Positions 37,017 through 56,869 of a stretch of DNA of 64,000 nucleotides are shown here, piece by piece (within the stretch, counting starts at the first letter, position 1; each line of letters starts with the position of its first letter). Source of the DNA: Nitrospirota bacterium. GTDB taxonomy: Bacteria; Nitrospirota; Thermodesulfovibrionia; Thermodesulfovibrionales; JdFR-88. Made by a program: the position numbers and the translations under genes. The stretch lies in NCBI GenBank assembly GCA_014874185.1, contig JACWAF010000029.1, positions 1-64,000 of the forward strand, in the 5' to 3' direction. The notes under the pieces were generated by a model. It saw only the letters and a list, made by a program, of their open reading frames with translations, ran no database searches and had not been told where the DNA came from.

Positions 37017-37141
37017 CTACTTCTCTTTTTTGTAAAAAAGAGAAGTAGCAAGAGAAAAAATTTTTGCATTTTTTCCTGCTTACTTCAGCGGGAAAAAATC
37101 TAAAAATTCTCTTTGCTACTTTCTCTTATAAGAGAAAGTAG
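37017..37141. repeat. Composite hairpin element A: perfect palindromes at 37017-37048 and 37116-37141 flanking inverted tail motifs
   Basis: ctacttctcttttttgtaaaaaagagaagtag ... rc(caaagagaatttttagattttt) ctactttctcttataagagaaagtag. Confidence 0.85.
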
Positions 37142-37146
37142 AATCT

Positions 37147-38364
37147 TTAAAATACTTCGATAGTTTTTCTCAGCGAGGGGACAGGGCCGGGGGTGGTTCT
37201 GGGTTGGAGGCCGGCGGAGAACTCGGGTGCCCCGATAAAGAGGCTTTTGAGGCCGGGAGCCATCAGGTGATTTCGCGCCTGTTCGAGTGTTTCCGGAAGG
37301 CAAGGCCTGTTCTCTTCAAGAAGATAAAGCCCGTGCCAGTTCTGCATGCCGTCCATGAATATGAAAGGGTGGCGCGAGAGGAACCGGACCGCCGCGGGGG
37401 ACTGATAACCCGGGCTTACCCAAACGCCTTCATAGCACTGTTTTTCCCTGGAGAGCACGGCGCCCCATTTTTTCTTGAAGCAGAAGACCCCGTCATCAAG
37501 GAACGGGCGGGACTTGCCAAGGTCCAGCAGGGAGAACCCGGCCTCCCGGGCGTGGTTGATCATATAGAAATAGGCTATCGTGGGGAGCGCCTTTTTGACA
37601 TCAAGGTCGACATCAACGGCTCCTCCCGTAACGGAAAAGCAGCATGAATTGCCGCGCTTATAGCAAAAATGCGCGTATACCGGCTTCCCGTCGTACAGCA
37701 CTTCAAGCAGCCAGCCTTTCCTGAAAAACTGCCAGTAACGGTTTATGTCGCCTATTACGGCCATATCCTTATGCCGCTCTTTCATAAGCGGCAGGTGCAG
37801 GTCGTAGAAAAATCTTTCAAAACGGGCGGGATCAGAACTCACCCTGCAGGTGATGCCGTGTTTCTTTATCTTGGCCAGACGCCCTCTGATCTCGTTTCTC
37901 CTGAAGGCGGCATCCGCCGGACCGTTTTTTTTCAGGTCGAGCACCTGCGGCACCCAGGGCAGGGTCAGAAAACCGCCCTGGCCGGAAATCTTCAGAAGGA
38001 AGGGGAAAGGCATCTCCACAAAGACGAGGTCGTATGTTTTGCGGAGCTGTAAAACCGCCTCTTTAAGGCGGGATAGAGGAGTATGCCCCAGGATTTCCGC
38101 CGGAGGGACAGTTTCGAAAGCGAGTTTGCTTAAATAATCAAGGCTCCTGAAGAAACCGAGGTAGGCTATCCGCATGGGACCGTGGGGGCCATCGCCGCTT
38201 AAACTTTTTATGGGGAGACGAATCATCCTGTATTTGGCTACCGCCGCCCTTGCCGCAAAAAGCAGGGGATCGGTCAGCGGATAGGCGGGCTCCGGCAAAG
38301 AAAGCTCAATCCTTGCGATTATGCTTTTCAGGCCCTGGCTCAGGTTCATTTTTGCTCTTTTCAC
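37147..38364 (-). CDS. FemAB/GNAT-fold acetyltransferase-like protein (BioF2/CelD-like peptidoglycan-bridge family)
   Basis: About 400 aa. Motifs typical of the family (HFCYKRGNSCCFSVTGG...AGFSLLDLGKS). Confidence 0.5.
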   Translation of the reverse strand: MKRAKMNLSQGLKSIIARIELSLPEPAYPLTDPLLFAARAAVAKYRMIRLPIKSLSGDGPHGPMRIAYLGFFRSLDYLSKLAFETVPPAEILGHTPLSRLKEAVLQLRKTYDLVFVEMPFPFLLKISGQGGFLTLPWVPQVLDLKKNGPADAAFRRNEIRGRLAKIKKHGITCRVSSDPARFERFFYDLHLPLMKERHKDMAVIGDINRYWQFFRKGWLLEVLYDGKPVYAHFCYKRGNSCCFSVTGGAVDVDLDVKKALPTIAYFYMINHAREAGFSLLDLGKSRPFLDDGVFCFKKKWGAVLSREKQCYEGVWVSPGYQSPAAVRFLSRHPFIFMDGMQNWHGLYLLEENRPCLPETLEQARNHLMAPGLKSLFIGAPEFSAGLQPRTTPGPVPSLRKTIEVF

Positions 38365-38473
38365 CGGGAATTTTTTTTGTGAGCTTCTTCAGGGAAAGTA
38401 GATGATGATTGGAATGTTAGTTCATTTCATTGCCATTGGCAACAGGAAAAAGCCAGAAAAAGGCGAAGATTCT

Positions 38474-38576
38474 CTACTTTTCTTTTTTATAAAAAAGAAA
38501 AGTAGCAAAAGAAAAAATTTTTACCGAAAAGCGTCCAAAAGTTCTTTTTGCTGCTTTTTCTTACAAGAAAAAGCAG
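38474..38576. repeat. Composite hairpin element B (palindromes at 38474-38505 and 38551-38576)
   Basis: ctacttttcttttttataaaaaagaaaagtag caaaagaaaaaatttttacc ... ctgctttttcttacaagaaaaagcag. Confidence 0.85.
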
Positions 38577-38587
38577 GTCCTTTGTCT

Positions 38588-39892
38588 TTACGGTCTTCCC
38601 ACGGAGTAGTATTTAAACCCGGCGGCGCGCATTTTTTCGGGGTCGTAGATATTGCGGAGGTCGAAGAAGAAGGGCTGGTTCAGGAGTTTCATTATCTGGC
38701 CCAGATCGAGGTTGCGAAACTCGTTCCACTCGGTGACTATGACCAGGGCGTCGGCCCCTTTTGCGGCCTCGTAGGGGTCTTTGGAGTATTTCACGGTATT
38801 TGGCAGCAGCTTTTTTGCCACGGGGACGGCGGCCGGGTCATAGGCCTTTATAACCGCTCCCTTTTTTGAAAGGGCATTTATGATGTCTATTGCCGGGGCC
38901 TCGCGAACGTCGTCGGTATTGGGTTTGAAGGAGAGCCCGAGGATGGCGAGGGTCTTCCCCTCAAGCGGGTTCAGGGCGTCCTTTATCCTCTCCACCATGG
39001 AGCGCTTCTGGGACTCGTTCACCTCGATGGCGGCCTTGATTATTTTAAGTTCGGTACCCGTCTCCTCGGCAAGGCTCACCAGTGCCCTGGTGTCCTTGGG
39101 GAAGCATGAGCCGCCGAAGCCCGGGCCGGGGTGGAGGAACTTGGGGCCTATGCGCTTGTCCAGCCCTATCCCTTTGGCCACCATGTGCACGTCCGCGCCG
39201 AGGCGCTCGCAGAGCTGGGCCATCTCGTTTATGAATGATATCTTTGTGGCCAGGAAGGAGTTGGAGGCGTACTTGATAAGTTCGGCCGTTTCAATGTCGG
39301 TTGTAACGAACGGGGTCTCCAGGAGGTAGAGCGGCCTGTAGAGGTCCTGCAGGATGGCGGAGGCCTGCGGGCTCTCGGAGCCGATGACCACGCGGTTCGG
39401 GCGCATGAAATCCTCTATGGCCGCGCCCTCGCGGAGGAACTCGGGGTTTGAGGCCACATCGAAGTGGGTATTGTTCTTCCGGTTTTCCTCTATTATCTTT
39501 TTAATGCGCTTTCCCGTGCCTACGGGGACGGTGCTCTTGGTGACGATCACTTTATAGCCGTCCAGGTGGTTGGCTATCTCCTTTGCCACCTCCTCCACGT
39601 AAGAGAGGTCGCAGGAGCCGTCGCCGCGCGGGGGCGTGCCCACGGCTATGAAGATGACCAGGTTTGAATTTACCGCCTCGCCCACCTTGCTTGTGAAGGC
39701 GAGCCTGCCCTGCTTGAAATTCTTTTCCACAAGGGCCTGGAGGCCCGGTTCGTAAAAGGGGATCCTGCCTCTTTTAAGGGCGTTTATCTTCTCTTCATCG
39801 CGGTCGGCGCAGGTGACGTGTATGCCGAACTCCGCGAAACACGCCCCGGTGACCAGCCCTACATAGCCAGTTCCTATTATTCCTATATGCAT
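38588..39892 (-). CDS. ugd: UDP-glucose 6-dehydrogenase
   Basis: MHIGIIGTGYVGLVTGACFAE (Rossmann fold) and the catalytic GGSCFPKD. A true start at MHIG is preferred over the upstream ORF-track start. Confidence 0.9.
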   Translation of the reverse strand: MHIGIIGTGYVGLVTGACFAEFGIHVTCADRDEEKINALKRGRIPFYEPGLQALVEKNFKQGRLAFTSKVGEAVNSNLVIFIAVGTPPRGDGSCDLSYVEEVAKEIANHLDGYKVIVTKSTVPVGTGKRIKKIIEENRKNNTHFDVASNPEFLREGAAIEDFMRPNRVVIGSESPQASAILQDLYRPLYLLETPFVTTDIETAELIKYASNSFLATKISFINEMAQLCERLGADVHMVAKGIGLDKRIGPKFLHPGPGFGGSCFPKDTRALVSLAEETGTELKIIKAAIEVNESQKRSMVERIKDALNPLEGKTLAILGLSFKPNTDDVREAPAIDIINALSKKGAVIKAYDPAAVPVAKKLLPNTVKYSKDPYEAAKGADALVIVTEWNEFRNLDLGQIMKLLNQPFFFDLRNIYDPEKMRAAGFKYYSVGRP

Positions 39893-39914
39893 TCTACCGG
39901 ATTTCCTTTTTCCC

Positions 39915-40070
39915 CCTTCTTTCTCTTGTAAGAGAAAGAAGGGAAAGAGAATTTTTAGATTTTTTTGCCCCGAACGGGGCAAAAAAATGCAAAACCCAAG
40001 GGGCCTTAGCCCCGTATCTAATGTTTCTCTTCTTTTGCTACTTTTCTTTTTTACAAAAAAAGAAAAGTAG
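39915..40070. repeat. Composite hairpin element C (palindromes at 39915-39942 and 40038-40070, with an internal GC terminator-like hairpin at 39968-39985)
   Basis: ccttctttctcttgtaagagaaagaagg gaaagagaatttttagatttttttg ccccgaacgggg caaaaaaa ... ctacttttcttttttacaaaaaaagaaaagtag. Confidence 0.85.
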
Positions 40071-40160
40071 GTCTTCCCTATTTAAAAAACAGGTACGTTG
40101 ATAATTTATATGTATTTGGCAAACTTGTCAAAACGGGAAGCCGGTTGATATGCTAAAAGG

Positions 40161-42596
40161 ATGCGTTTTTATTCGGCTTTTGAGCGGCCCTCCAGATATA
40201 TAAACCGCGAACTGAACGCCATATACAAGGACGCCCCTCTGAAGGCGGCCCTCGCCTTTCCGGACACCTATGAGGTGGGGATGAGCCACCTGGGCCTGAA
40301 GATATTGTACAAGATAATCAACGACCTCCCCTATGCGCAGGCCGAGAGGGTTTTTCACCCATGGATAGACCTTGAAGCGGAGATGAGGGCCAAAGGCATG
40401 CCGCTTTGCTCGCTGGAGGGCAAACGGCCCTTAAGCGGGTTCGACATAGTGGGTTTCAGCCTTCAGTACGAGCTTTCATATACATCGGTCCTCAATATGC
40501 TGGAACTGGGCGGCATACCTGTTTTTTCAGCCGAGCGGAAGGACTCGCATCCCCTGATCATTGCGGGAGGCCCTTGCGCCGTGAACCCGGCGCCGCTTTC
40601 GCCCTTTATAGACGCCTTCCTCATCGGGGACGGCGAGGAGGCGGTCGTTGAGATCTTCGAGAAATTTTATCAGTGGAAAAAATCGGGCGATGGGCGAAGA
40701 GAAACCGCCCTGCGGATGCTGTCGGAGATTCCCGGCCTGTATGTGCCTGGTCTTTATAAAGCCGTTCCTATTAAAAGGAGAATTATAGAATCTTTGGAGG
40801 ACGCGCCGTATCCGGTGAAACCCGTCCTCCCCTATGCCCAGGTTGTGCACGACAGGGTGAACGTGGAGGTCTCGAGGGGATGCACGATGGGGTGCAGGTT
40901 CTGCCAGGCGGGGATGGTCTACAGGCCCTTGCGGGAGCGCTCGCCCCGGAAGGTGCTGGAGCTTGCCGAGGCCGCCCTGCGCGCCACCGGATACGAGGAA
41001 GTGGCCTTCACATCGCTGTCCGCCGGGGACTATTCCTGCCTGGTGCCGCTTCTAAGGGAGTTCAACAGGCGGTTTTCGGGGCGCATGGTCTCGCTATCTC
41101 TCCCATCACTGAGGGTGAAGGCGGTGAACGCTGAGGTCCTGAACGAGATAAAGTCCGTCCGGAAGACGGGCTTCACGATAGCCCCGGAGGCGGGCACAGA
41201 CAGGCTCCGTGCCGTGATAAACAAGGATTTCTCAAACGAGGATTATCTTAGGGCCCTGGACACCCTTTTTAAGGAGGGCTGGCAGCATATAAAGCTCTAT
41301 TACATGATCGGTCTGCCCACGGAGACCGAAGAGGACATCGAGGCCATCCCAAGGATGGCGGCCCTTGCCGCGCGCGCAGCAAGGAAGTACACCCGCAAAT
41401 TCACGATGAACGTGGGCGTCTCCCCGTTCGTCCCGAAGCCCCATACCCCGTTCATGTGGGAGGGACAGATGGACATGGAGGAGATCAAAAACCGGAAATT
41501 CCACATCCTCCGTTCGCTTAGAAAGGTGGCGCACAAGCTAAAGAGCCATGACGAGCGGATGAGCCTTCTGGAGGCGGCATTCTCGCGCGGGGACTCTGAG
41601 AAGATGCCCGCATTGCTCTATGCCGCATGGCGCAAGGGCGCGCGGCTGGACGGCTGGAGCGAGGGCTTCAACTGGGATGCCTGGCAGGCCGCGATGGAAG
41701 AGACCGGGGTGGACGCCAGGGAATTCGCAATGAGGCGCTACGGCCTGGACGAGCCGCTCCCCTGGGAGATGGTGGATGCCGGAGTGGGCAGGAAATTCCT
41801 GGAAAAAGAATACAGGCTGGCCCTCTCGGGCCGCATCACCCCCGATTGCAGAGGCGTCTGCGCCGGGTGCGCCCTGAAGTGCGGCACTAACCCACCCCTG
41901 CACCCCTCCCAAGAGGGGATTTTAGAGGAAAAGATAAAAAATATCCCGCAAGTCCCGTTCTCAATGCGGGTAGAGTTCTCGAAGACCAGGCCCCTTTCCC
42001 TCCTCTCGCACAGAGAGGTCTATACCGCCATCATCAGGGCGGCAAGGCGGGCGGGCATGCCCCTGGAGTTCACTAAAGGCTTTCACCCCGCGCCAAAACT
42101 CTCCTTCGGCCCGCCTCTTGGCGTGGGCGTGGAGGGGCTTGCCGAGTGCTTCGACATCACCCTCGCCTCGTTCATCCCGCCCGAGGGCTTCAAGACGGCA
42201 ATGAACCTGGAGCTTCCGGAAGGGCTCCGGATAAAGGACGCGCTGGCCCTGCCCCAAAACGGTGTAGCCTCCCTGCAAGCCTTTATATCCATCTACAATT
42301 ATGAGATAATAGGCATCGGGCCTGAAAAGGCCGAAGAATTCATGCAATTGGGCGAGTTCCGGGTGGAACGGGATTCAGGCAGCATAGATATACGTAAAAT
42401 GATCACCAGGGCGGAGACGAGCGGGCCGGATTCCGTCCGGTTCTCCCTGGCCGATACCGAAGAGGCAAAGGTGCGGCTGGAAGAGATACTGAACGCCGTC
42501 TTCGGCAAGGGCCTCCGCGAAGTAACGGCAAGGCGAATAGCCATCCTGGGCAGAAAGAATGATAATTGGCTCTCGCCAATGGAAATACTGAAATGA
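40161..42596 (+). CDS. Radical SAM protein (B12-binding-like N-terminus, CxxxCxxC radical SAM core, C-terminal DUF2344/TIGR03936-like domain)
   Basis: VSRGCTMGCRFCQAG. It is a large multidomain protein of the TIGR03960-like type. Confidence 0.7.
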   Translation: MRFYSAFERPSRYINRELNAIYKDAPLKAALAFPDTYEVGMSHLGLKILYKIINDLPYAQAERVFHPWIDLEAEMRAKGMPLCSLEGKRPLSGFDIVGFSLQYELSYTSVLNMLELGGIPVFSAERKDSHPLIIAGGPCAVNPAPLSPFIDAFLIGDGEEAVVEIFEKFYQWKKSGDGRRETALRMLSEIPGLYVPGLYKAVPIKRRIIESLEDAPYPVKPVLPYAQVVHDRVNVEVSRGCTMGCRFCQAGMVYRPLRERSPRKVLELAEAALRATGYEEVAFTSLSAGDYSCLVPLLREFNRRFSGRMVSLSLPSLRVKAVNAEVLNEIKSVRKTGFTIAPEAGTDRLRAVINKDFSNEDYLRALDTLFKEGWQHIKLYYMIGLPTETEEDIEAIPRMAALAARAARKYTRKFTMNVGVSPFVPKPHTPFMWEGQMDMEEIKNRKFHILRSLRKVAHKLKSHDERMSLLEAAFSRGDSEKMPALLYAAWRKGARLDGWSEGFNWDAWQAAMEETGVDAREFAMRRYGLDEPLPWEMVDAGVGRKFLEKEYRLALSGRITPDCRGVCAGCALKCGTNPPLHPSQEGILEEKIKNIPQVPFSMRVEFSKTRPLSLLSHREVYTAIIRAARRAGMPLEFTKGFHPAPKLSFGPPLGVGVEGLAECFDITLASFIPPEGFKTAMNLELPEGLRIKDALALPQNGVASLQAFISIYNYEIIGIGPEKAEEFMQLGEFRVERDSGSIDIRKMITRAETSGPDSVRFSLADTEEAKVRLEEILNAVFGKGLREVTARRIAILGRKNDNWLSPMEILK

Positions 42597-42719
42597 CTTC
42601 TTTCTCTTATAAGAGAAAGAAGCAAAGAGAATTTTTAGATTTTTCTGCTCTTCCAGAGCAGAGAAGTAGTAAGAATTTTTTCTCTTGCTACTTCTCTTTT
42701 TTGCAAAAAAGAGAAGTAG
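42597..42719. repeat. Composite hairpin element D (palindromes at 42597-42622 and 42688-42719, with an internal ctgctcttccagagcag hairpin)
   Basis: cttctttctcttataagagaaagaag caaagagaatttttagatttttctg ... ctacttctcttttttgcaaaaaagagaagtag. Confidence 0.85.
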
Positions 42720-42729
42720 GTAATCCTTT

Positions 42730-44250
42730 ATGAACTTATCAAGCACGATACTGGTGAATGTGACCGGGCAGGAGCACCGGGTTGCCCTCATTGAGGGGGG
42801 GCAGGTGGTGGAGGTCTATGTCGAGCGCAGGAAGACGGCCAGCCTGGTGGGCAACATTTATAAAGGCAAGGTGCTGCGGATATTGCCTGGGATGCGTTCG
42901 GCCTTTGTGGACATGGGGCTTGAGAAGGCTGCGTTCCTGTACGTGGCGGACATCCGGACGGACATAGTGGATGATTACGCGATGATGTTCGAGGACGAGA
43001 ACCCCGCCTATGGCGGGACCACTCTGGATTTTCTGCACAAGGGCAGGCACGAGTTTCTGATAGATGAATTGCTGCACGAGGGGCAGGAGATACTGGTGCA
43101 GGTCTCGAAGAACCCCATCGGCAGCAAGGGGGCGAGGGTCACTTCTTATATTACCCTTCCAGGCAGATATATCGTGCTGATGCCGAACCTGGAGCATATC
43201 GGGATATCCAGAAGGATAGGTGATGAGGAAGAGCGGATACGGCTTCGGGGGATAGTTGAGGAGATAAAGCCCAAGGGGTTCGGGCTGATCGTGCGGACGG
43301 CCAGTGAAGGGGCCAGCCGGGATGAGCTTCAGAGGGACCTCGAATTCCTGGTCCACCTCTGGGAGAGCGTGATGAAAAAGAACGAGCACTCCGGTGCGCC
43401 GAGCCTTATACACAGCGACCTTGACCTTGTGCTCCGCAGCGTACGCGACCTGATGAGCCAGAACGTGGACCAGATGGTGCTGGACAACGAAGAGGCCTAC
43501 CAGAAGGTGAACGAGTTCGTAAAGAGCTATTTCCCCAAGCTTCTGAACAGGATAGAGCTTTATGACAGGGACGAGCCGATATTCGATTATTACGGGATAG
43601 AGGTGGACATATCTAGGGCCCTGGGGCGCAGAATATGGCTGAAATCCGGGGGCTACATCGTGATAGACCAGACGGAGGCCATGACGGTAATAGACGTGAA
43701 CACGGGCAAGTACGTGGGAAAGGAAGACCTCGAAGACACCATCCTGCGCACGAACCTTGAGGCCGTAAAGGAGATAGCGTACCAGATAAGGCTCAGGAAC
43801 CTGGGGGGCATCATAATAATAGACTTTATAGACATGGAAGAGATGGAGAACAGGCAGAAGGTCTTCAGCGCCCTGCAGGAGGCGATGAAAAAGGACAGGA
43901 CTAAGAGCACCATCTCCCAGATCACGGAGCTTGGGCTTATCCAGATGACCAGGAAACGGGTGCGCGAGAGCCTGGTGCGCACGCTGCTTGAGCCCTGCCC
44001 CTATTGCGAGGGGAAGGGTTATGTGAAATCCATAATCACCCTCTGCTACGAGATATTCAGGAAGATAGACAAGATGGCGAAACACGGGATGAAGCGGCTT
44101 GTGATCACGGCGCACCCGTATGTGGCGGAGCTGTTGATGGACGAAGAACGGCAGAGGATAGAGGAGATAGAGAACGCCTACGGGATGAAGATAATAGTGA
44201 ATGAAGACCCGGCCCTTCACCAGGAGAATTACGAAATCACCGCATTATGA
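42730..44250 (+). CDS. rng: Ribonuclease G/E family endoribonuclease
   Basis: S1 domain at the N-terminus (ILVNVTGQEHRVALIEGGQVVEVYVE...GNIYKGKV), an RNase E/G catalytic core and a CPYCEGKG zinc link. Confidence 0.85.
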   Translation: MNLSSTILVNVTGQEHRVALIEGGQVVEVYVERRKTASLVGNIYKGKVLRILPGMRSAFVDMGLEKAAFLYVADIRTDIVDDYAMMFEDENPAYGGTTLDFLHKGRHEFLIDELLHEGQEILVQVSKNPIGSKGARVTSYITLPGRYIVLMPNLEHIGISRRIGDEEERIRLRGIVEEIKPKGFGLIVRTASEGASRDELQRDLEFLVHLWESVMKKNEHSGAPSLIHSDLDLVLRSVRDLMSQNVDQMVLDNEEAYQKVNEFVKSYFPKLLNRIELYDRDEPIFDYYGIEVDISRALGRRIWLKSGGYIVIDQTEAMTVIDVNTGKYVGKEDLEDTILRTNLEAVKEIAYQIRLRNLGGIIIIDFIDMEEMENRQKVFSALQEAMKKDRTKSTISQITELGLIQMTRKRVRESLVRTLLEPCPYCEGKGYVKSIITLCYEIFRKIDKMAKHGMKRLVITAHPYVAELLMDEERQRIEEIENAYGMKIIVNEDPALHQENYEITAL

Positions 44251-46140: not shown

Positions 46141-46219
46141 ACCCCCGCACCGGCAGAATATCACAGCCGAAAATCCGTTATAATAGGCGCGAAGTCCATT
46201 CCTTGCAGAAGGGGGCGTT

Positions 46220-46870: not shown

Positions 46871-46908
46871 TCAAGTTTTTTTATCAGGGGCTCTGCCCCT
46901 GAAACCCC

Positions 46909-46956
46909 GGTTCTTTCTCTTGTAAGAGAAAGAACCGAAGAGAACTTTTAATGCGC
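46909..46956. repeat. Solo hairpin element E (ggttctttctcttgtaagagaaagaacc plus tail gaagagaacttttaatgc)
   Basis: Same family as elements A to D. A GC hairpin (caggggctctgcccctg) precedes it. Confidence 0.8.
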
Positions 46957-47005
46957 ACGCCGGCACGTCTTTATTTCCTCCCGGCAAACCCGTTATAATA
47001 ATGCC

Positions 47006-49245: not shown

Positions 49246-49278
49246 CTCTCCGCCTGCTTAAAGGCCAAAATATCCGTT

Positions 49279-49602
49279 ATGGAAATATCGGGACTCAAAT
49301 TCGACGAGAAGGGCCTGATCCCGGCAATCGTGCAGGAGGCGGACACGGGGGAAGTCCTCATGATGGCCTACATGAACCGGGACTCTATCAAAATGACCAT
49401 GGAGAGCGGCTATACGCATTTCTGGTCGCGTTCCAGGCAGAAGTTCTGGAAGAAGGGCGAGACCTCCGGCTGCGTCCAGGAGGTTAAAGAGGTCCTCTAT
49501 GACTGTGACAAGGACACCCTGCTCGTAAAAGTGAAACAGCGCGGCGCGGGGGCCTGCCACACCGGCGAGCGCACCTGTTTCTTCCGCAGACTTTCGGACT
49601 GA
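49279..49602 (+). CDS. hisI: Phosphoribosyl-AMP cyclohydrolase
   Basis: [26 protein letters not shown]...[10 protein letters not shown]...DCDKDTLL...[10 protein letters not shown]. Confidence 0.9.
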
Positions 49603-49604
49603 GA

Positions 49605-49949
49605 ATGACAGACTGCCTCTTCTGCCGGATAGCGGAAAGGGGGATCCCGGCGAAAATCCTCTACGAGGACGAGCTTTCCCTGGCCTTTGAGGACGTCAAC
49701 CCCCAGGCCCCAACCCATGTCCTTGTTATACCCAGGAAGCACATACCCACGGCCCTGGATATAAGGGAAGAGGACAAGGGGCTTATCGGCCATCTCTATA
49801 TTGTGGCCTCCAAAATCGCCCGCGAGAAGGGCATAGCCCAGCCCGGCTTCCGCCTGGTCATGAACTGCAACCGCGACGCGGGGCAGGCCGTCTATCACAT
49901 CCACCTGCACGTCCTTGGGGGCCGCCGCATGCACTGGCCGCCCGGATAG
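49605..49949 (+). CDS. HIT-family hydrolase (Hint-like)
   Basis: CLFCRI...HVLVIPRKH...HIHLHVLGG histidine triad. Confidence 0.9.
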   Translation: MTDCLFCRIAERGIPAKILYEDELSLAFEDVNPQAPTHVLVIPRKHIPTALDIREEDKGLIGHLYIVASKIAREKGIAQPGFRLVMNCNRDAGQAVYHIHLHVLGGRRMHWPPG

Positions 49950-50004
49950 GCACGGAAATTACATTCCGAAGCCCCCTTTTTTGCGGGACAGAGCCCCGCA
50001 AAAA

Positions 50005-50047
50005 ACCAAGAGTTCTTTTTGGTTCTTTTTCTTGCAAGAAAAAGAAC
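50005..50047. repeat. Solo hairpin element F (gttctttttcttgcaagaaaaagaac) next to a bidirectional terminator-like GC hairpin at 49984-50007
   Basis: Same core family. It lies between convergent genes. Confidence 0.75.
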
Positions 50048-50069
50048 AATAAACAATCTTTATCTTTTT

Positions 50070-50723
50070 TTACGCCGCTTCGGCTGAGGGCAAAGCTTTT
50101 TCTTTTTTCCTGTTAAAGAACCATATCACGGCCTTGCCGCACAAAAGGCCCAGGATGATCCCCGCGCCGATGTCTGAAGTGAAGTGGGCCATCTTCTCCA
50201 CCCTGGAGAGGGCCACCATTACCGCATAGCCGTAAAACAAAACCCTGTACCGGGGGAAATAGAACGAAAGCATACAGGCGAAGCAGAAGGCCTCCGTGGT
50301 ATGGCCCGAGGGGAAGGAGTCGTACCCGTGCTTTATATTCGGGCCGATGAAGGCGAGGCCCTTATCAAGTGACGGCCTTGCACGTCCGATGAGGTGTTTC
50401 AGTATCTGCACGGCCGCCCCGGAGAAGAGGAAACCGGCCACTATGCTTCTGCCAAGCCTGGGGGATTCGATCTTTAGAAGCCTGGCCGCCGCGAAAAGGA
50501 GGACGGCCGCGCCCAAAAAGACCTCCTCCTGCGAAAGGAACCTCATGCCCGATGTGACAAACTCCAGGGCCGGCCGCACGGCCTCCAGTTTGTGCAGGGC
50601 GGTTACCCAGCTCTCCACTTGCCCGTCCATGAGAAAAAGAAACAGCGTTATGGCCGAAAGGCCCAGGTAAAGCAGGGCCTCTCCGTTTTTATTTTTCGAG
50701 TAGTGCATAGGTTTTGTCTTCAC
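50070..50723 (-). CDS. PAP2-family phosphatase (membrane)
   Basis: KHLIGRARP...SFPSGHT...SRVEKMAHFTSD. These are PAP2 motifs. Confidence 0.8.
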   Translation of the reverse strand: MKTKPMHYSKNKNGEALLYLGLSAITLFLFLMDGQVESWVTALHKLEAVRPALEFVTSGMRFLSQEEVFLGAAVLLFAAARLLKIESPRLGRSIVAGFLFSGAAVQILKHLIGRARPSLDKGLAFIGPNIKHGYDSFPSGHTTEAFCFACMLSFYFPRYRVLFYGYAVMVALSRVEKMAHFTSDIGAGIILGLLCGKAVIWFFNRKKEKALPSAEAA

Positions 50724-52215
50724 TTACTATGTGCATCCCCTGTTCTTCCAAATCCGCGGCGTCTTTCCTGCTGGATATGGCGACGGCCCTGTTTGCGCTC
50801 TGCAGAAAGGGGCGCAGGTTGTCGCCGGGCCCCAGACGGAGGGCCATGTGCCCGGAATAGAAGACCACGCTTGGGTTATTTATCCCATAGGTTATCACTG
50901 GCTCGCCATAGGGCAATTTCTCTTTGGCGTATGTGCTATAGCGGTAGAGGTCGCCTTGCAGGCGTTCGCTGGCCAGGGGAAGCGCCTGCAGGGCCAAAAC
51001 GCATAAAGCGGCGGCGGAGAGCGCCGGGACGGCCCAGTATGCCTTCTTCCGCCAGATGCCGGGGATGAAACTCGCCCCGCAGGCGGAAAGAAAAAGAAAG
51101 GCCGCCACGCCAAAGCGGGGCCAGAGCCCGGCCTGAATGCCCATTGCCGATAAATATTTATCCGAGAACAAGAGTGCGATCCCCAGGACCGCCGAGGCCA
51201 GGGCGACGAAATAGAAGCCGAAGCCCCGCTTTGCCATGGGACTGATGCCGAGCGCTATCAGCATGGCCGCCGCGGGCACCGCTGGCAGTATATAGTTTGG
51301 CAGCTTGGTCGTGGAGAACGTGAAAAAGACGAATATGAAAGAGGACCATATCAGGGCAAAAAGCCCGAACCCGTCTGTTTTTCTCTCTTTTAGGGCCCTT
51401 TTTATTCCCGCGGGCAGGAACCCCGCCCAGGGGAAGAGACCGGCAGCGAGCATCGGCAGATAATACCAGAGCGGCCCCTTATGCCCGGATATCACGCCAA
51501 GGTACCGCTCGAGGTGGTGTTTGATTATGAACTGGTCTATGAACTCCCGGCCGTTTATGGCCAATTGGGCGCCGTACCACGGGCCTGAGACGAGCAGGAA
51601 CAGGGCCATCCCCGGAAGGCTCATCAGCTCCCTCAGCTTCCGGCCCGAAAGAAGGAGGTAAACCCCGCCTATGGTAAAGGGGAAAATTATTCCGATAAGC
51701 CCTTTCGTGAGGAATGCAAGCGCTGAAAAGAGATAAAAACCATATATATAGGCCTTTTTATCGTGAAAAGAGATATACAGCGACATTAGCGAGAGCCCGA
51801 TAAACAGGGTGAGCGCCATATCGGTTACGGCGGCATGGGAGTAGACCAGGTAATAGACCGAGAGCACCATCGCCCCCGCGGCATAAAAGGCCTCCTCCTC
51901 TCCCCGGAAACGCCTTACGAAGAAAAAGGTTGCCAGGACGAGCAGGAATCCCGACAGGGCCGAGGGGAACCTGGCGCCGAACTCGTCTATGCCGAAGAGC
52001 TTGTAGGAGGCGGCCATCATCCAGTAAAAGAACACGGGCTTGTCGAACCGGTTCTCGCCGTCATAATGGGGCGTTATGTAGTCGCCCCCCCGCACCATCT
52101 CCCTGGTGGCCTCGGCGAAGACCGCCTCGTCCACGTCGAAGAGGGTTACGGAAGCGAGCCGGGAGAACGAGATAAAGAGCGCCAGGGCGGCTATGGCGAT
52201 AAATAGTGGTCTCAT
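50689..52215 (-). CDS. GT39/GT83-family glycosyltransferase (ArnT/PMT-like dolichyl- or undecaprenyl-phosphate sugar transferase)
   Basis: LFDVDEAVFAEATREMVRGGDYITPHYDGENRFDKPVFFYWMMA. The protein is polytopic. A true start at MRPLF is preferred. Confidence 0.8.
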   Translation of the reverse strand: MRPLFIAIAALALFISFSRLASVTLFDVDEAVFAEATREMVRGGDYITPHYDGENRFDKPVFFYWMMAASYKLFGIDEFGARFPSALSGFLLVLATFFFVRRFRGEEEAFYAAGAMVLSVYYLVYSHAAVTDMALTLFIGLSLMSLYISFHDKKAYIYGFYLFSALAFLTKGLIGIIFPFTIGGVYLLLSGRKLRELMSLPGMALFLLVSGPWYGAQLAINGREFIDQFIIKHHLERYLGVISGHKGPLWYYLPMLAAGLFPWAGFLPAGIKRALKERKTDGFGLFALIWSSFIFVFFTFSTTKLPNYILPAVPAAAMLIALGISPMAKRGFGFYFVALASAVLGIALLFSDKYLSAMGIQAGLWPRFGVAAFLFLSACGASFIPGIWRKKAYWAVPALSAAALCVLALQALPLASERLQGDLYRYSTYAKEKLPYGEPVITYGINNPSVVFYSGHMALRLGPGDNLRPFLQSANRAVAISSRKDAADLEEQGMHIVSEDKTYALLEK

Positions 52216-52301
52216 CACGCCTTTCGAAAAAGTGCTGATTGCAGACTTTATTGTACACGAGAGCGCTTGGTCTTTCCAACCGCAACCTGTATAATTGCCT
52301 G

Positions 52302-52733
52302 ATGAAACCTGATCTTCCCGCGAACCAGAAGGAGGCCAGGAAGAACTCGGCCCGGGAGATACTGCACCGCCGGGTGCACATGGCAAACGAGCGCACGCTG
52401 CTTGCCTGGATACGGACCTCCATATCCATAATGGCCTTCGGCTTCGTGGTGGAGAAATTCGCGATCTTTTTAAGGCAGTTCGCCATCACGGAAGGTGTTA
52501 TCGGGCTCCGTCCGGCTGTGCCCCCGGGCAGGGGCTATTCGAGCGTATTCGGGGCTGTGCTGGTCGGGATCGGGGCGCTCCTCGGCCTGCTGTCATTCGT
52601 CAGGTATCTGAAGGTGCAGAAGCAGATAGACAAGGGCGTCTATTACCCTTCGTTTATACTGGATGTCATGCTGGTGATTTCGGTGGTGGCGATAGCCGTC
52701 TTCCTGCTCTTCTACCTGGTGCACAGCGTTTAG
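52302..52733 (+). CDS. DUF202 (YidH) family membrane protein
   Basis: ANERTLLAWIRTSISIMAFGFVV. Confidence 0.7.
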   Translation: MKPDLPANQKEARKNSAREILHRRVHMANERTLLAWIRTSISIMAFGFVVEKFAIFLRQFAITEGVIGLRPAVPPGRGYSSVFGAVLVGIGALLGLLSFVRYLKVQKQIDKGVYYPSFILDVMLVISVVAIAVFLLFYLVHSV

Positions 52734-52902
52734 TTTTTAGAATTTTATAACTTATTCACCCGTTCAAGCCTTTCCGGCCGTCTGGAGCCGCAAGCTATTA
52801 ACAAAGCAGTGGCGAGTCAAGCCGGCCTTAACAGGGCAGCGCTGTAAAAACCTTGCTTTCTTCCCCTTAAAAATTTTATAAAATCCGATGCAGGAGAAAT
52901 TC

Positions 52903-53619
52903 ATGTCTTCAAAAAACATCCCGGTAAGAGAGCGCCTGATATTCGCCCTTGATGTAGCAAGTCATTCGGAGGCAAAGGCCCTGGTTGAAAAGCTTGGCGA
53001 CTCGGTCCTTTTCTATAAACTGGGGCTTGAGATATTCATGGCGGGCGACTACTACGGGCTGATTGAATGGCTGCTGCAAAGGGGCAAAAAAATCTTTGCC
53101 GACCTCAAGTTCTTCGACGTGCCGCAGACCGTGGCCTCCGCCGTGCGCCAGCTCAGGGGCAGGGGCATATCTTTCTGCACGGTCCACGGGAACGGGCGCA
53201 TTCTGGAGGCGGCGGTCAGGGAAAAAGGCGATTTGAAGATCCTTGCCGTAACCGTCCTTACCAGCCTGGACCAGCGGGACATCGAGGACCTTGGCTTCAA
53301 GGTGGATATAAAAAACCTCGTCCTCTCCAGGGCAAGAAGGGCGCTGGAAGCGGGCTGTGACGGGGTTATCTCATCGGGACTGGAAGCGCCGGAGCTTAGA
53401 AAAGAACTGGGCCGGAAATTCCTGGTGGTGACCCCCGGGATAAGGCCGGTTGAAAACAGGCCCGCTGACGACCAGAAGCGCACCGTGGACGTGCGCGAGG
53501 CATTCAGAAACGGCGCGGACTACATAGTGATAGGGAGGCCCATAAAAAACGCCCCGGACCCGAAGAAGGCCGCGGAAGAGGTGCAGGAGACTATCGCCTC
53601 CGTCTTCCGGGAAGGCTGA
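52903..53619 (+). CDS. pyrF: Orotidine 5'-phosphate decarboxylase
   Basis: LIFALDV...FYKLGLEIF...KIFADLKFFDVPQTVA...TVHG. RBS AGGAGAAA. Confidence 0.9.
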   Translation: MSSKNIPVRERLIFALDVASHSEAKALVEKLGDSVLFYKLGLEIFMAGDYYGLIEWLLQRGKKIFADLKFFDVPQTVASAVRQLRGRGISFCTVHGNGRILEAAVREKGDLKILAVTVLTSLDQRDIEDLGFKVDIKNLVLSRARRALEAGCDGVISSGLEAPELRKELGRKFLVVTPGIRPVENRPADDQKRTVDVREAFRNGADYIVIGRPIKNAPDPKKAAEEVQETIASVFREG

Positions 53620-53699
53620 TCCAGCCATTCCCTCTTGCCCCCGCCCCGCTCGCCCGCAAAAATAGCCTTCAGGACCCATGTTCTGCTATATTAGGGAAA

Positions 53700-54302
53700 A
53701 TGGGTGATTACTGCCTCTATCAGCCGCTCACGAAGACCGATAAGATAACTGTAGTCCTCTACAGGGCGGGTATTGTCCTGTCTGCTTCGGTTATCGCGAC
53801 AATGGCCGCGATGCTTTTCGTCTCGCCGGATAACATGGGCCTTGCGCCCGCTGAGGGGTTCAATATTCTTCTTATGCTGCTCTATTTTTCGGTGGGGCTG
53901 AGCGTCTTTTTTATCCATCTTTACATGGGCAATTACAAGCGGAACCTGCGAAAACTGTATTTTATCGCCATTGCGGCCCTGGTTTTTATTTTTTTCAGCG
54001 GCGGGGGCGATGCCCTTCTGTATTTGACGACAAGCCGTCTTGCGCCTCTTTTGATGCTGCCCATAGCGGGCTGCCTGGGGTTTATCACGGCAAAAGAGGC
54101 CTTCTGCTTCAAGCTCATCGAGGGCTACCTTCTTGCTCTCATTATGCCGTTTTACCTTCTCCTTTTCGCCTCCGGGCTCCTGCCCGCCACCGGGATAAGA
54201 CTGGGCCTTTCCCTTATCGCGGCAATGCTTGTGGTCTTTACGCTAAGAAAGGTCTTTATGCCAATCCACTGCGATATAGGGGACAAGTCGGCCTACCGGT
54301 AA
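53700..54302 (+). CDS. Hypothetical polytopic membrane protein upstream of atpB (possible AtpI/AtpZ-like)
   Basis: About six transmembrane helices. No clear family. Its position resembles that of atpI. Confidence 0.4.
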   Translation: MGDYCLYQPLTKTDKITVVLYRAGIVLSASVIATMAAMLFVSPDNMGLAPAEGFNILLMLLYFSVGLSVFFIHLYMGNYKRNLRKLYFIAIAALVFIFFSGGGDALLYLTTSRLAPLLMLPIAGCLGFITAKEAFCFKLIEGYLLALIMPFYLLLFASGLLPATGIRLGLSLIAAMLVVFTLRKVFMPIHCDIGDKSAYR

Positions 54303-54315
54303 GACCTGAAACCCC

Positions 54316-54366
54316 GTACTTTCTCTTGTAAGAGAAAGTACCAAAGAGAATTTTTACCAAAACGGG
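54316..54366. repeat. Solo hairpin element G (gtactttctcttgtaagagaaagtac plus tail caaagagaatttttacc)
   Basis: Same family. Confidence 0.8.
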
Positions 54367-54534
54367 TCATCCCGTTCCATAAGACAAGTTTTTTGACTGC
54401 CTCAACTTACAGTTATTAAATTTATTTATTAAGGCTTATGCCGTCTTGACTAGGCGTTCATTTCTCAAGTAACATAAACAGGATTTTCGCCGAATCCGGC
54501 ATTTTAGCCAAGAAACCAGGAGGATTCCGCCGGG

Positions 54535-55206
54535 ATGAATGAAGTAACCCTGTTGAGTTTTATACCAATTCCCGATTTTGTCTCTTTTTCCTTTTTGGCC
54601 ACGCTTATACTGATTACTGTGGCCCTTGTAATAAGGAGTTCAATAAAGCTTGTTCCGACGGGCATTCAGAACGTGCTCGAGACGATAACCGAAGCGATGC
54701 TGAACCTCTCCGAAGAGAACGTAGGCCCCCATTTCGGCGAGACCTTTTTCCCCTTCATAGCGACCATATTCGTTTATATCCTGGTCTGCAATTTCATGGG
54801 CCTGATACCGGGGTTCGTCTCGCCCACAAGCAACATAAACATGACCGCATCCATGGCCCTGCCGGTCTTCTTCGCCACGCATTATTACGGTATAAAGGTG
54901 CACGGGTTCAAGTACCTGAAGCACTTCCTGGGGCCCATGCGCTCCATATATGCGCTCCCGCTGATGATACTGATGTTCTTAATCGAGTTCATAGGGCATC
55001 TGGCGAGGCCGATAACCCTCTCGGTGAGGCTTTTCGGCAACATGCTTGCCAAGCATCTTCTTTTGATAGTCCTCGGCATACTGGTGCCGGCCATAATTCC
55101 GATGGCCATACTTGGCCTGGGAGTTCTCATAAGCGTTGTACAGGCGTTCGTTTTTGCGCTGCTCACCACCCTGTATCTTGCAGGGGCTGTTGAGGAAGCA
55201 CATTAA
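54535..55206 (+). CDS. atpB: F0F1 ATP synthase subunit a
   Basis: The C-terminus …LRLFGNMLAKHLLL…LTTLYLAGAVEEAH is typical of F0 subunit a. Confidence 0.9.
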   Translation: MNEVTLLSFIPIPDFVSFSFLATLILITVALVIRSSIKLVPTGIQNVLETITEAMLNLSEENVGPHFGETFFPFIATIFVYILVCNFMGLIPGFVSPTSNINMTASMALPVFFATHYYGIKVHGFKYLKHFLGPMRSIYALPLMILMFLIEFIGHLARPITLSVRLFGNMLAKHLLLIVLGILVPAIIPMAILGLGVLISVVQAFVFALLTTLYLAGAVEEAH

Positions 55207-55233
55207 TATCATAAGGAAAGGAGGAAGATTGTC

Positions 55234-55596
55234 ATGAAAAGAATCATATCCATCATCCTGCTTGCCTCCATGGTGCTGCTTTTAGCGGCATCGTTTGCCT
55301 TCGCTGCTGATCAGGCCGCGGCCACTACCGCTGCCGCGGCTGGCGGAAGCAAGATCAGTTATTACGCCATGGCCGTCCTTGGATGCGCCATAGGCATAGG
55401 TCTTGCGGCTTTGGGCACCGGCATCGGCCAGGGTATCGGCCTCGGCGGCGCCTGCGAAGGTGTGGCAAGGAATCCCGGCGCTTCGGGAAAGATCACCACG
55501 ACTCTGATCATCGGTCTGGCGATGATAGAATCCCTGGCCATCTATGCCCTGGTCGTGGTCCTGATAGTGTTCTTTGTTAATCCGTTCAAGCTTTAA
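55234..55596 (+). CDS. atpE: F0F1 ATP synthase subunit c with a signal-peptide-like N-terminal extension of about 35 aa
   Basis: GIGQGIGLG...ARNPGA...[26 protein letters not shown]. No other atp genes follow, so this is a split atpBE operon. Confidence 0.9.
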
Positions 55597-56502
55597 TATC
55601 CTTAATAGCTTAAAGGGGGGCCGCAAGGCCCCTTTTTTTTTATCCGCTCTTCTTTTTGCCATGAAAATCCGCTCCATTCCGGCGTAGTCCTTGAGTACGG
55701 CCTCGAACCGGAGGCCGGACGTTTCGGCGAGACCTTTCAATATCTCCGGGTCCGTGCCCCCGGCTATCTCGATGAGGAGAGGGGCGCCGGGCATGAGGTA
55801 ATCCCGCGCGGAGGCGATTATTTTTTCTATGATCTCCAGCCCTTCCGGGCCGGGGGTGAGGGCCACTTCGGGTTCCCAATCTTTTATCTCCGGGGCCAGT
55901 TCTTTCATAACCGTGCCTTTTATATAGGGCGGGTTGGCCGTAATGAGGTCAAAGCGTATGCCCTTTACAGGGGCGAAGAGGTCGCCTTTCAGAAACCGCG
56001 CGTTTTCAATCCCGTTTAAAACCCTGTTCTTTTCGGCCCAGGAGAGGGCGGCTTCTGATATGTCCACTCCGGTGACATCGGAGCCGGGGAGGTTTTTGGC
56101 CAGGGCCAGGGCGATTGCCCCCGTGCCGGTGCAGAGGTCAAGAATTTTGGGGTTAGCCTTTTTTATCTTCTTCAGGGCCTCATGGACCAGGAGTTCGGTC
56201 TCAGGCCTGGGGATGAGCACGCCGGGGCCGACCAGTATCTTTAATCCATAAAAACTTACATGTCCGATTATGTACTGTATCGGCTCGCGGTATTTTCTCC
56301 TTTTCAGTGCGTCTTTCAATTGTCGGGTCTGCTCTGCGGAGAGTTTCGGGTTATCGCGGTAAAGCCGGACGGGGTCTATCAGGAGGAGTTCTTTGAAGAT
56401 AAGTTCGGCCTCTTTCTCCGGGCCGGGGATGCCAATTTTTCTTAATGCGTGGATGGTCTCCCTGAAGGCCTCTATTGCTTTAACAGGGCGCTTATAAACC
56501 AT
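55282..56502 (-). CDS. prmC: Release-factor glutamine N5-methyltransferase PrmC (HemK). The ORF as read has no stop until 55282 and runs antisense through atpE. The true C-terminus is probably near 55600-55640.
   Basis: [13 protein letters not shown]...[12 protein letters not shown]...ITANPPYI (NPPY motif). The homologous region is about 290 aa. An A9 run lies at about 55632-55640 within the terminator. Confidence 0.8.
55611..55640 (+). terminator. Rho-independent terminator after atpE (GGGGGCCGCAAGGCCCC followed by T9)
   Basis: A GC stem-loop followed by a T run. It is palindromic and so may also terminate the convergent prmC transcript. Confidence 0.75.
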
Positions 56503-56504
56503 TT

Positions 56505-56640
56505 TTACCTCACCCCCGCCCTCTCCCCCAAGGGGAGAGGGTTGAACATATTAGCCCCTCGAGCAGACCGCGACCGGCGCTTCGGAGTCCTGGCACCCCC
56601 AAGGGGAGAGGGTTGAACAATATTAGACCCTCCCTTCTGC
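56505..56640. repeat. Tandem direct repeat of about 75 bp (2 units), each carrying ccccaaggggagagggttgaacaWtattagMccc. Unit 1 contains a perfect 10-bp hairpin CCCTCTCCCC-AA-GGGGAGAGGG.
   Basis: Read directly from the sequence. It lies in the unusual 365-bp prfA-prmC spacer. Confidence 0.75.
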
Positions 56641-56729
56641 CCCGGAAAACCTCCGGTTTTTCGGGGGCCCCCTGAATCGTGGAGGGGTAGGGGAGGGTGC
56701 ATTTAAGAATTTTTTCAGCAGCTTGCTCA

Positions 56730-56869
56730 TGCTGGTTCAAGTTTGCAACTTGAACCCATAGTTAGTTTTCAGAACACGAATTTTCGGGTTCAGGTTACAA
56801 ACCTGAACCCGCCAAGAGTTCTTTCTTTTGCTACTTTTCTTTCTTGCAAGAAAGAAAAGTAGATCATTA
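56730..56869. repeat. Two GGTTCARGTTTGYAACYTGAACC-type palindromes (about 56735-56757 and 56777-56803) plus solo hairpin element H (56838-56869) that overlaps the prfA stop codon
   Basis: ggttcaagtttgcaacttgaacc, gggttcaggttacaaacctgaaccc and ctacttttctttcttgcaagaaagaaaagtag. Confidence 0.8.

Follow-up and report, generated by a model that had tools for sequence, protein, structure and literature searches.

The closest described analogues of the elements reported here are the PIT repeats of E. coli and other Proteobacteria, also named BoxC or TMECO (Hoyne, Edwards, Viari, Maher 2000; Holder et al. 2015, PMC4666352). These multi-copy, intergenic elements, which at times form inverted pairs and have been linked to local genome variability, follow the consensus 5'-CCCTCNCCC N3-6 GGGNGAGGG N3 GGGNGAGGG and have neither promoter nor terminator activity, and their single strands fold into a triplex in vitro, as detected by circular dichroism, nuclear magnetic resonance and melting (PMC4666352). 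An intrastrand triplex, in the ITxF definition, consists of a pyrimidine block (Y), a complementary purine block (R) and a mirror third block, with stems of 6-15 nt and loops of 1-6 nt; in the purine motif the third strand lies antiparallel to the duplex's purine strand (A.A-T, G.G-C), and in the pyrimidine motif (T.A-T, C+.G-C) it lies parallel (PMC4666352). PIT repeats have been known since 2000, and their folding and function in vivo are unproven, partly because their sequence is nearly invariant and offers no covariation. Here we describe a family of AT-rich palindromes, each followed by a tail, in a 64,000-nt stretch from a Nitrospirota bacterium (contig JACWAF010000029.1, positions 1-64,000; the window below). 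The proteins encoded there are those of a Nitrospirota / Thermodesulfovibrionales-like organism. We conclude that they probably constitute a dispersed intergenic repeat family whose unit is a potential intrastrand triple helix, selected for its structure and spread as a non-autonomous repeat. Judged by its sequence, the family is an AT-rich, co-varying variant of the bacterial intrastrand-triplex repeats.

AT-rich palindromes and their mirror tails

The palindromes of the window were re-located and re-checked for coordinates, stems and gene distances. All 12 AT-rich palindromes of a preliminary description were recovered as perfect palindromes, with stems of 12-16 bp, loops of 0-3 nt and lengths of 26-33 bp; the upper length had been put at 32 bp, and three of the 12 start coordinates moved by 1-7 nt (39915, 46909 and 56838 to 39914, 46908 and 56831) while nine stood. 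Their GC content of 0.19-0.43, against about 0.55 for the window, bears out the contrast with GC-rich surroundings that had been pointed out, and the palindrome centre, CTT(R)(Y)AAG, is conserved. The core motif, with at most two mismatches, was matched 11 times in the window where 0.01 matches were expected. No extra copies were found in the window with two stem mismatches allowed, and none within positions 1-37000; all 12 palindromes lie within 37-57 kb, the other 44 kb being free of copies. The outer 4 bp of the stem, hereafter the clamp, are CTAC/GTAG in six copies, CTTC/GAAG in two, GTTC/GAAC in two, and GTAC/GTAC and CTGC/GCAG in one each, so that five clamp types occur and complementarity is kept in every copy, as had been claimed. 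Because the stems are essentially perfect, a comparison of strand-specific G.U/G.T pairs in imperfect copies, which could have told RNA from DNA, was uninformative. Two contigs from independent Logan short-read assemblies of the same organism (L016 and L017) end inside hairpins 42688-42719 and 46908-46937, indicating that the elements are not assembly artefacts. These two short contigs were all that a search with the RNase G protein yielded, and an exact search with the radical-SAM protein gave no match. The breaks of L016 and L017 are at the same time instances of the fragmentation of short-read metagenome assemblies by these elements.

A conserved tail, caaagagaatttttagattttt, had been reported after most copies. 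We found it complete after only three and partial after a fourth, and the remaining tails differ among copies, each tracking its own stem. When the copies were aligned in the order hairpin then tail, the tail turned out to be a mirror repeat of the same copy's own purine arm. For example, purine arm, clamp, linker and tail read AAAAAAGAGAA-GTAG-C-AAGAGAAAAAA at 37017, AAGAAAGAAAA-GTAG-C-AAAAGAAAGAA at 56831 and AAGAAAAA-GCAG-C-AAAAAGAA at 38551. Over 7-12 nt, the sequence 3' of each of the 12 hairpins agrees with its purine arm read backwards, and in 10 copies the geometry is identical, with 4 clamp bp skipped, a 1-nt linker and a mirror tract over the whole arm (8-12 nt). The unit on one strand is thus ordered as 4-bp mixed clamp, homopyrimidine arm (8-11 nt in the window, up to 26 nt elsewhere), 2-4-nt apex, homopurine arm, clamp, 1-nt linker and mirror purine tract, and purine motifs such as AAGAGAA occur three times in it. 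The matches of the copies to their own tails total 114 nt, a value equalled by none of 10,000 permutations of the tails among copies, and across copies there is three-way covariation of pyrimidine arm, purine arm and tail. An independent triplex finder, set to accept 8 or more perfect Y/R/mirror-R triads and no loop above 8 nt, recovered 10 modules in the window, whose loops measure 2 and 4-5 nt; five block-shuffled controls gave none. Set against the general definition of an intrastrand triplex, perfect triads number 8 or more in 10 of the 12 copies and 7 in the other two, and the modules are above chance, multi-copy and intergenic. We also considered mirror identity at the loop-proximal non-purine base (A-T.T, G-C.C); several copies were discordant on inspection by eye, and the agreement at this position was put down to a chance overlap with the beginning of the T-run or of the CTYTTG box.

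Templated synthesis gives direct or inverted repeats, never mirror repeats, and the triplex is, to our knowledge, the only nucleic-acid structure that requires a homopurine mirror repeat; the module therefore points to a triple helix. In the naming of the Hoyne/Maher scheme and Holder et al., one strand of the unit is of class II (Y-R-R) and the complementary strand of class IV (Hoogsteen pyrimidine tract, pyrimidine arm, purine arm). The covariation of the three segments permits, at every position, T-A.A or C-G.G triads on the one strand, and T.A-T or C+.G-C triads on the other, in the window and in many unrelated contigs. The view of the preliminary description that selection acts on structure over a linear binding site is thereby strengthened beyond what had been argued, and the structure it had proposed, a plain hairpin or cruciform, gives way to a hairpin with a third strand, as the mirror tail implies. 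The fixed 4-bp clamp and 1-nt linker suggest a fixed three-dimensional constraint.

Wider distribution and comparison with known elements

Metagenomic and viral contigs were scanned with one hairpin core as the seed, the tail not being included; many chance poly-T/A matches were also returned. True modules were identified in many contigs with a GC content of 0.34-0.67, in Nitrospirota-like, rumen and phage settings, and three contigs (L005, L143, L161) carry modules identical to window types. Among 128 pyrimidine/purine hairpins, 31, with 22 distinct arms, showed at least 85% mirror identity at the geometry of a 4-bp clamp and 1-nt linker, and 340 of their 362 triads were T-A.A or C-G.G; the corresponding identity was 0.32 for the opposite flank and 0.61 when a direct repeat served as control. 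Perfect mirrors at this geometry reach 26 and 19 nt in L124 and 23, 22 and 17 nt in L098, a mirror in L119 matches at 24 of 25 arm positions, and mirrors of 26, 25 and 23 nt occur at slightly different spacing in L060, L077 and L065, respectively. When mirror and direct-repeat matches were compared, the mirror was better 40 times, tied 9 times and worse in no case. G (or C) positions in the A/T-rich arms are isolated: GG occurred 4 times against 11.5 expected, a count as low being reached in 4 of 2,000 shuffles, and all four lie in one probable chance match. Isolated G/C positions are a design rule for pyrimidine-motif triplexes, and AT-rich arms with isolated C/G and no GG appear to fit the pyrimidine motif better than they fit the G-rich purine motif of TMECO.

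A conserved noncoding region with two modules is common to about nine phage-like contigs (L150, L155, L159, L162, L163, L174, L180 and L184, together with L070; in L155 it lies within a gap of about 690 nt). The region contains CGCTTTTTCTTGTAAGAAAAAGCG-acc-AAAAAGAAC, with a second module GTTCTTTTCTCTGA...TCAGAGAAAAGAAC-C-AAAAGAGA and variable hairpins. It had no Rfam match, and consensus folding of five sequences gave -47.8 and -46.9 kcal/mol on the two strands, with few covarying pairs.

Two further repeats came up in the scans. In a Clostridia metagenome-assembled genome, Reindeer_2_mag_174 (L001-L004, L009, L012-L014), a longer composite repeat is present in at least 8 copies and carries two pyrimidine/purine hairpins, one of them with the core and mirror tail of window class A; its clamps co-vary (GTTC/GAAC vs CTTC/GAAG). 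Four archaeal contigs (L006, L008, L011, L120) carry a single-copy CCTTTCTCTTGTAAGAGAAAGG hairpin of 22 nt with a spacer of 11-19 nt, followed in L006 and L011 by AAAGAGAAC after about 11 nt, whereas L008 and L120 are without that tail. The hairpin adjoins tRNA-like 5' sequence in L011, and neither ARAGORN nor Rfam made a call on it.

Like the AT-rich family, TMECO has the class II block order, is multi-copy and intergenic, forms inverted pairs and is linked to local rearrangement, and the copy number of both differs sharply between related genomes. TMECO is, however, G/C-rich (CCCTCNCCC / GGGNGAGGG) and of the purine motif, while the AT-rich family has isolated C/G and fits the pyrimidine motif; moreover, TMECO has a single, almost invariant sequence, with stems 9 nt long and loops of 3-6 and 3 nt, leaving no scope for covariation, in contrast to the 4-bp non-triplex clamp, 1-nt linker, 8-26-nt arms and three-way covariation found here. 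Arms longer than 15 nt, in contigs other than the window, also exceed the ITxF stem range. None of the 12 AT-rich copies fits the TMECO consensus, which had no match among 189 collected loci. Without its final G, the TMECO/BoxC pattern was matched once, at 56508-56541 on the minus strand in the prfA-prmC spacer (CCCTCTCCCCTTGGGGGAGAGGGCGGGGGTGAGG), with 0 matches expected by chance. The G/C-rich hairpin at 56519-56541 had at first seemed to have no third strand, a view that this match on the other strand overturned.

REP/BIME/REPIN elements resemble the AT-rich family in being short extragenic palindromes with many copies, single or in inverted doublets of about 100 bp, located near stop codons and inside operons, and structure-based rather than sequence-based. 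REPs differ in that they are imperfect, usually GC-rich and have no mirror third strand, whereas the AT-rich units are perfect palindromes with a mirror tail. REP/REPIN elements have cognate RAYT (Y1) transposases, and REPs are said to carry a conserved GTAG flanking the 5' foot of the hairpin, a feature attributed to Ton-Hoang et al. 2012 and Messing et al. 2012. In the window GTAG is found in 6 of 12 copies, there making up the clamp's 3' half within the stem, and it is replaced elsewhere by GAAG, GAAC, GTAC, GCAG, GGAT, GGAG or GAAT. Bacterial miniature inverted-repeat elements (MITEs) such as Neisseria Correia/NEMIS share with the composite pairs described below a size of 100-160 bp, AT-richness, inverted ends, intergenic position, co-transcription and long hairpins; they have target-site duplications and ends derived from insertion sequences, whereas no duplications were seen at the AT-rich composites, whose ends are a palindrome plus mirror tail and of which half-elements are common. 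With H-DNA, formed in duplex DNA, the likeness is partial: purine arm, 5-nt spacer and tail make a perfect homopurine mirror repeat, as H-DNA requires of its sequence, but the AT-rich unit has an extra upstream pyrimidine arm, so that a triplex would be possible within one strand and no strand need be taken from the duplex, and its tracts are short (8-12 nt). RNA triple helices (ENE/MALAT1, SAM-II, preQ1-II) resemble the complementary strand, if transcribed, in their U.A-U triads with isolated C+.G-C, but in them an A-rich tail is clamped in a U-rich internal loop or pseudoknot, whereas the AT-rich unit is a simple hairpin with a 5' pyrimidine strand. A search of the published literature found no description of this AT-rich family.

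The three-way covariation is the type of evidence that established RNA secondary structures, here obtained for a triple helix, and the family is a source of many natural compensatory mutants on which biophysical tests could be run. The range of intrastrand-triplex modules is also extended to uncultured Nitrospirota-like bacteria, rumen organisms and phages. More tentatively, the mirror covariation, seen in 22 arms with as many as 26 triads in sequences from bacteria, the rumen and phages, might be taken as evidence for selection on intrastrand triplexes in vivo, with AT-rich modules and their G/C-rich counterparts (TMECO-like modules at the same intergenic sites in a relative) as one widespread class of functional three-stranded elements at gene boundaries. 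If this were true, the elements could be the recognition structure of a mobilisation system, or a conformational switch, with tails paired together or serving as third strands, that affects operon expression.

Genomic setting and competing explanations

Every one of the 12 copies proved to be intergenic, as had been stated; the labels of a crude open-reading-frame caller, which marks some GC-rich intergenic sites as coding, were disregarded. Distances from the hairpins are 0-37 nt to stop codons and 10-109 nt to start codons, and the hairpin always faces the gene while the tail points away from it. Four inverted pairs account for eight copies, and their lengths of 125, 103, 157 and 123 bp are close to the 100-155 bp given in the preliminary description; pairs occupy convergent, tandem and divergent spacers, and single modules follow stop codons. 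The overlap with the prfA stop codon claimed there was not found, the hairpin lying 4 nt away from that stop. Elements stand inside two normally contiguous gene pairs, radical-SAM/RNase G and prfA/prmC, and must therefore be transcribed through; the radical-SAM and RNase G genes overlap or abut in three relatives (L018, L190, L191) and are 15-63 nt apart in five others. At the gathering threshold, Rfam yielded a tRNA only in the window and nothing in related loci, and at a permissive threshold all matches fell far below the family thresholds.

The four pairs align end to end as one 103-157-bp composite with inverted hairpin-and-tail ends. It consists, in this order, of a short module with an 8-nt arm, a tail, a T-rich spacer, a variable GC hairpin, the tail' and a long module with an 11-nt arm. 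With folding software of the ViennaRNA type, which admits Watson-Crick and G-U pairs only, three hairpins are obtained per pair (z-scores -6.8 and -7.3).

We compared the syntenic sites of relatives, which are distant from the window genome (55-84% amino-acid identity). No module was found at the syntenic loci of L018, L020, L187, L188, L190 and L191. The closest relative, L185, has family members in the same three spacers as the window: one pair separates RarA from UDP-glucose dehydrogenase, a second, degraded one stands between UDP-glucose dehydrogenase and radical-SAM, and a single module lies directly upstream of RNase G. Its arms differ from those of the window (e.g. TTTTTCTTTTT vs TTCTCTTTTTT) and the tails are still mirrored. 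In L192, two of the three sites hold G/C-rich triplex modules, e.g. TCCCCTCC / GGAGGGGA / AGGGGAGG. These observations would be explained either by long retention with three-way compensatory change or by repeated colonisation of the same gene boundaries by different triplex families. The G/C-rich modules of L192 lie at 2507-2539, 7258-7289, 9914-9939, 16095-16171 and 17798-17817, e.g. CCCTCTCCC-AA-CCCTCTCCC-TCAA-GGGAGAGGG.

A GNAT-like gene (PF13480, a weak FemAB-like match; 37147-38364, minus strand) is bracketed by pairs 1 and 2, both in one orientation. Five relatives that cover the site, L020, L185, L188 and L192 among them, do not have this gene between RarA and UDP-glucose dehydrogenase, and L185 has a single composite there. 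This arrangement fits the pattern expected of recombination at repeats, and with it the proposed link of triplex repeats with genome rearrangement.

The elements could instead act as RNA, with a hairpin beside a stop or start codon protecting 3' ends, setting processing or modulating translation as in REP/BIME and, upstream of genes, where the class IV order (tail' then hairpin) holds, with a U.A-U / C+.G-C RNA triple helix; this is a serious rival, although we consider it unlikely. Agreeing with it are the location within operons that need read-through (radical-SAM/RNase G, with a gap of 0-63 nt in relatives, and prfA/prmC), the distances of 0-13 nt from several stops and 10-21 nt from two starts, the position of the phage module in a conserved noncoding gap of 690 nt, where it runs in the same direction as the genes on either side, and the fact that pyrimidine-motif triplexes are possible in RNA (PMC4666352); the three singles between co-directional genes (46908, 54316, 56831), all of them in sense with the hairpin before the tail, add a weak argument. 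However, the sense order after stop codons is that of the purine motif (Y-R-R), reported not to form in RNA (PMC4666352), and perfect palindromes with essentially no G.U-type pairs imply that both strands are equally constrained. Pairs also hold one module in each orientation regardless of gene direction, Rfam families do not match, and the phage region folds alike on both strands. A role as intrinsic transcription terminators or promoters carried on an AT-rich cassette is very improbable. Many copies do follow stop codons with T-runs after the tail, and terminator-like matches overlap 38551-38576 and 42660-42697, but the stems are rich in AT and the T-run does not begin until 9-13 nt past the stem, after the tail, so that the elements lack the GC-rich stem with an immediate U-tract of an intrinsic terminator. 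In the central hairpins a T-run lies ahead of the stem and an A-run behind it, the wrong order on either strand. The flanking genes that abut or overlap in relatives must be co-transcribed, the promoter scan placed no sigma-70-like promoter in the elements, and the analogous PIT elements have neither activity (PMC4666352).

A plain hairpin or cruciform MITE, in which the palindrome alone matters and the tail is a conserved transposon end, would account for the perfect palindromes with co-varying clamps, the mutually alignable composites with inverted ends, the restriction of the family to certain lineages, and the breaks of short-read assemblies, as for multi-copy repeats. Yet in 22 arm variants of up to 26 nt the tail changes with the arm in mirror order, which neither linear common descent nor templated copying predicts and which contradicts this explanation; together with the lack of any target-site duplication at the four pairs, it makes a plain MITE improbable. 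The MITE-like reading of the preliminary description holds in so far as the pairs are one composite with inverted ends and six relatives are without the family, and is weakened by the lack of target-site duplications, the lack of a transposase among the 20 window genes scanned and the occupation of the same three sites in L185, a distribution that argues for long retention or repeated same-site insertion and not for simple recent hopping. Alternatively, the palindrome could be an operator for a dimeric DNA-binding protein with the tail as an extra half-site, for which the conserved palindromic centre and the three AAGAGAA-type motifs per unit could speak. The arms, however, vary in length (8-26 nt) and sequence while complementarity and mirror are kept, a sequence and its reverse cannot be equivalent to a protein (the mirror beats the direct repeat 40 to 0), and the sites stand before and after unrelated housekeeping genes in every orientation; we give this explanation very little credence.

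For the intrastrand triple helix, we favour the DNA level, because both strands are equally constrained, the pairs hold both orientations and the known analogue folds as single-stranded DNA. Selection would keep the capacity to form a hairpin with a third strand in single-stranded or negatively supercoiled DNA. In a cruciform-type extrusion, each hairpin could capture the adjacent melted tail; folding on the lagging-strand template or the non-template strand would be an alternative route. The units, single or as inverted pairs about a central GC hairpin in a composite resembling a REPIN or MITE, would accumulate at gene boundaries and also within operons, and the family would spread and persist as a structure-dependent, non-autonomous repeat like REPs and MITEs. 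Side effects would be local rearrangement, as at the GNAT-like gene, and, after transcription, a very stable hairpin beside stop and start codons.

Several observations weigh against a mobile triplex repeat. Covariation is the sole line of evidence from which we infer the triple-helix fold, and the two tails of a pair base-pair together in the central stem of the Watson-Crick fold, in competition with third-strand binding, so that third-strand binding and tail-tail pairing would be alternative states. Copies 40038 and 46908 match over 7 triads only. A.A-T triads of the purine motif are weak and C+.G-C triads need protonation, and triplex stability at neutral pH is uncertain for 8-nt arms. Seeding the scans with a core biases the sample to related arms, and the copies are not phylogenetically independent. 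As for mobility, the sequences that flank the four pairs have no direct repeat in common that could be a target-site duplication, no transposase was found among the 20 window genes scanned, and the three sites common with L185 may mean ancient retention instead of transposition. The double-stranded form of TMECO gave no triplex, and its in vivo dimethyl sulphate footprint was negative (PMC4666352).

Coordinates of the modules and neighbouring features

The 12 modules and four composite pairs are listed in Table 1.

Table 1. Positions, segments and gene distances of the modules and composite pairs in the window
Feature	Coordinates	Strand	Hairpin, clamp and arm	Third strand	Position
Module 1	37017..37060	+	hairpin 37017-37048; clamp CTAC/GTAG; Y arm TTCTCTTTTTT, R arm AAAAAAGAGAA	linker C, mirror AAGAGAAAAAA at 37050-37060	module begins 4 nt past RarA stop
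Module 2	37107..37141	-	hairpin 37116-37141; arm TTTCTCTT/AAGAGAAA	AAAGAGAA at 37107-37114	5 nt from GNAT-like gene stop
Module 3	38474..38517	+	hairpin 38474-38505; arm TTTTCTTTTTT	AAAAGAAAAAA at 38507-38517	
Module 4	38542..38576	-	hairpin 38551-38576; clamp CTGC/GCAG; arm TTTTTCTT	AAAAAGAA at 38542-38549	11 nt from UDP-glucose dehydrogenase stop codon
Module 5	39914..39951	+	hairpin 39914-39943	AAAGAGAA at 39944-39951	21 nt upstream of UDP-glucose dehydrogenase start (ATG 39892-39890, - strand)
Module 6	40023..40070	-	hairpin 40038-40070	degenerate; 7 perfect triads (AAAAGAA, 40030-40036), mismatches beyond	90 nt upstream of radical-SAM gene
Module 7	42597..42631	+	hairpin 42597-42622; clamp CTTC/GAAG	AAAGAGAA at 42624-42631	0-nt gap to radical-SAM TGA stop
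Module 8	42676..42719	-	hairpin 42688-42719; arm TTCTCTTTTTT	AAGAGAAAAAA at 42676-42686	end 10 nt ahead of RNase G ATG
Module 9 (single)	46908..46944	+	hairpin 46908-46937, preceded by GGGGCTCTGCCCC-TGAAACCCC; clamp lengthened to CGGTTC/GAACCG	AAGAGAA at 46938-46944, 7 triads	37 nt past FSA/transaldolase stop
Module 10 (single)	50013..50047	-	hairpin 50022-50047; clamp GTTC/GAAC; arm TTTTTCTT	AAAAAGAA at 50013-50020	22 nt from PAP2 gene stop
Module 11 (single)	54316..54350	+	hairpin 54316-54341; clamp GTAC/GTAC	AAAGAGAA at 54343-54350	13 nt past DUF2301 gene stop
Module 12 (single)	56819..56862	-	hairpin 56831-56862; arm TTTTCTTTCTT	AAAAGAAAGAA at 56819-56829	4 nt from prfA stop, within prfA-prmC spacer
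Pair 1	37017..37141	-	125 bp; central hairpin 37068-37099		between convergent RarA gene and GNAT-like gene
Pair 2	38474..38576	-	103 bp; orientation as pair 1		between UDP-glucose dehydrogenase and GNAT-like gene (tandem, - strand)
Pair 3	39914..40070	+	157 bp; central hairpin 39959-39988, additional GC hairpin 40000-40013		between divergent UDP-glucose dehydrogenase and radical-SAM genes
Pair 4	42597..42719	+	123 bp; central hairpin 42639-42667		occupies 123 of 133 nt of radical-SAM/RNase G spacer

A conserved box, GGGGCTCTGCCCC-TGA(A)ACCCC, made of a GC hairpin and spacer, lies on the hairpin side of some modules (46880-46907 and 54303-54315 in the window, 1664-1685 in L185) and suggests a longer element variant.

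The spacer between prfA and prmC, two genes that are usually adjacent, measures 364 nt and is filled by repeats. A direct repeat of about 40 nt, CCCCCAAGGGGAGAGGGTTGAACA(A)TATTAG.CCCT, occupies 56526-56565 and 56596-56636, and the pyrimidine arm present in the first copy is missing from the second. A pair of related GC hairpins, GGTTCAAGTTTGCAACTTGAACC and CGGGTTCAGGTTACAAACCTGAACCCG, lie at 56734-56756 and 56785-56811 and look like a separate small repeat family.

Elsewhere in the window, the stretch 16000-22000 has a low GC content (0.46-0.48), open reading frames without a Pfam match and no triplex module. It includes a DUF234/ATPase_2/ArsR-type gene (20030-21412) and a tRNA (21939-22011, minus strand), and may be an acquired island.

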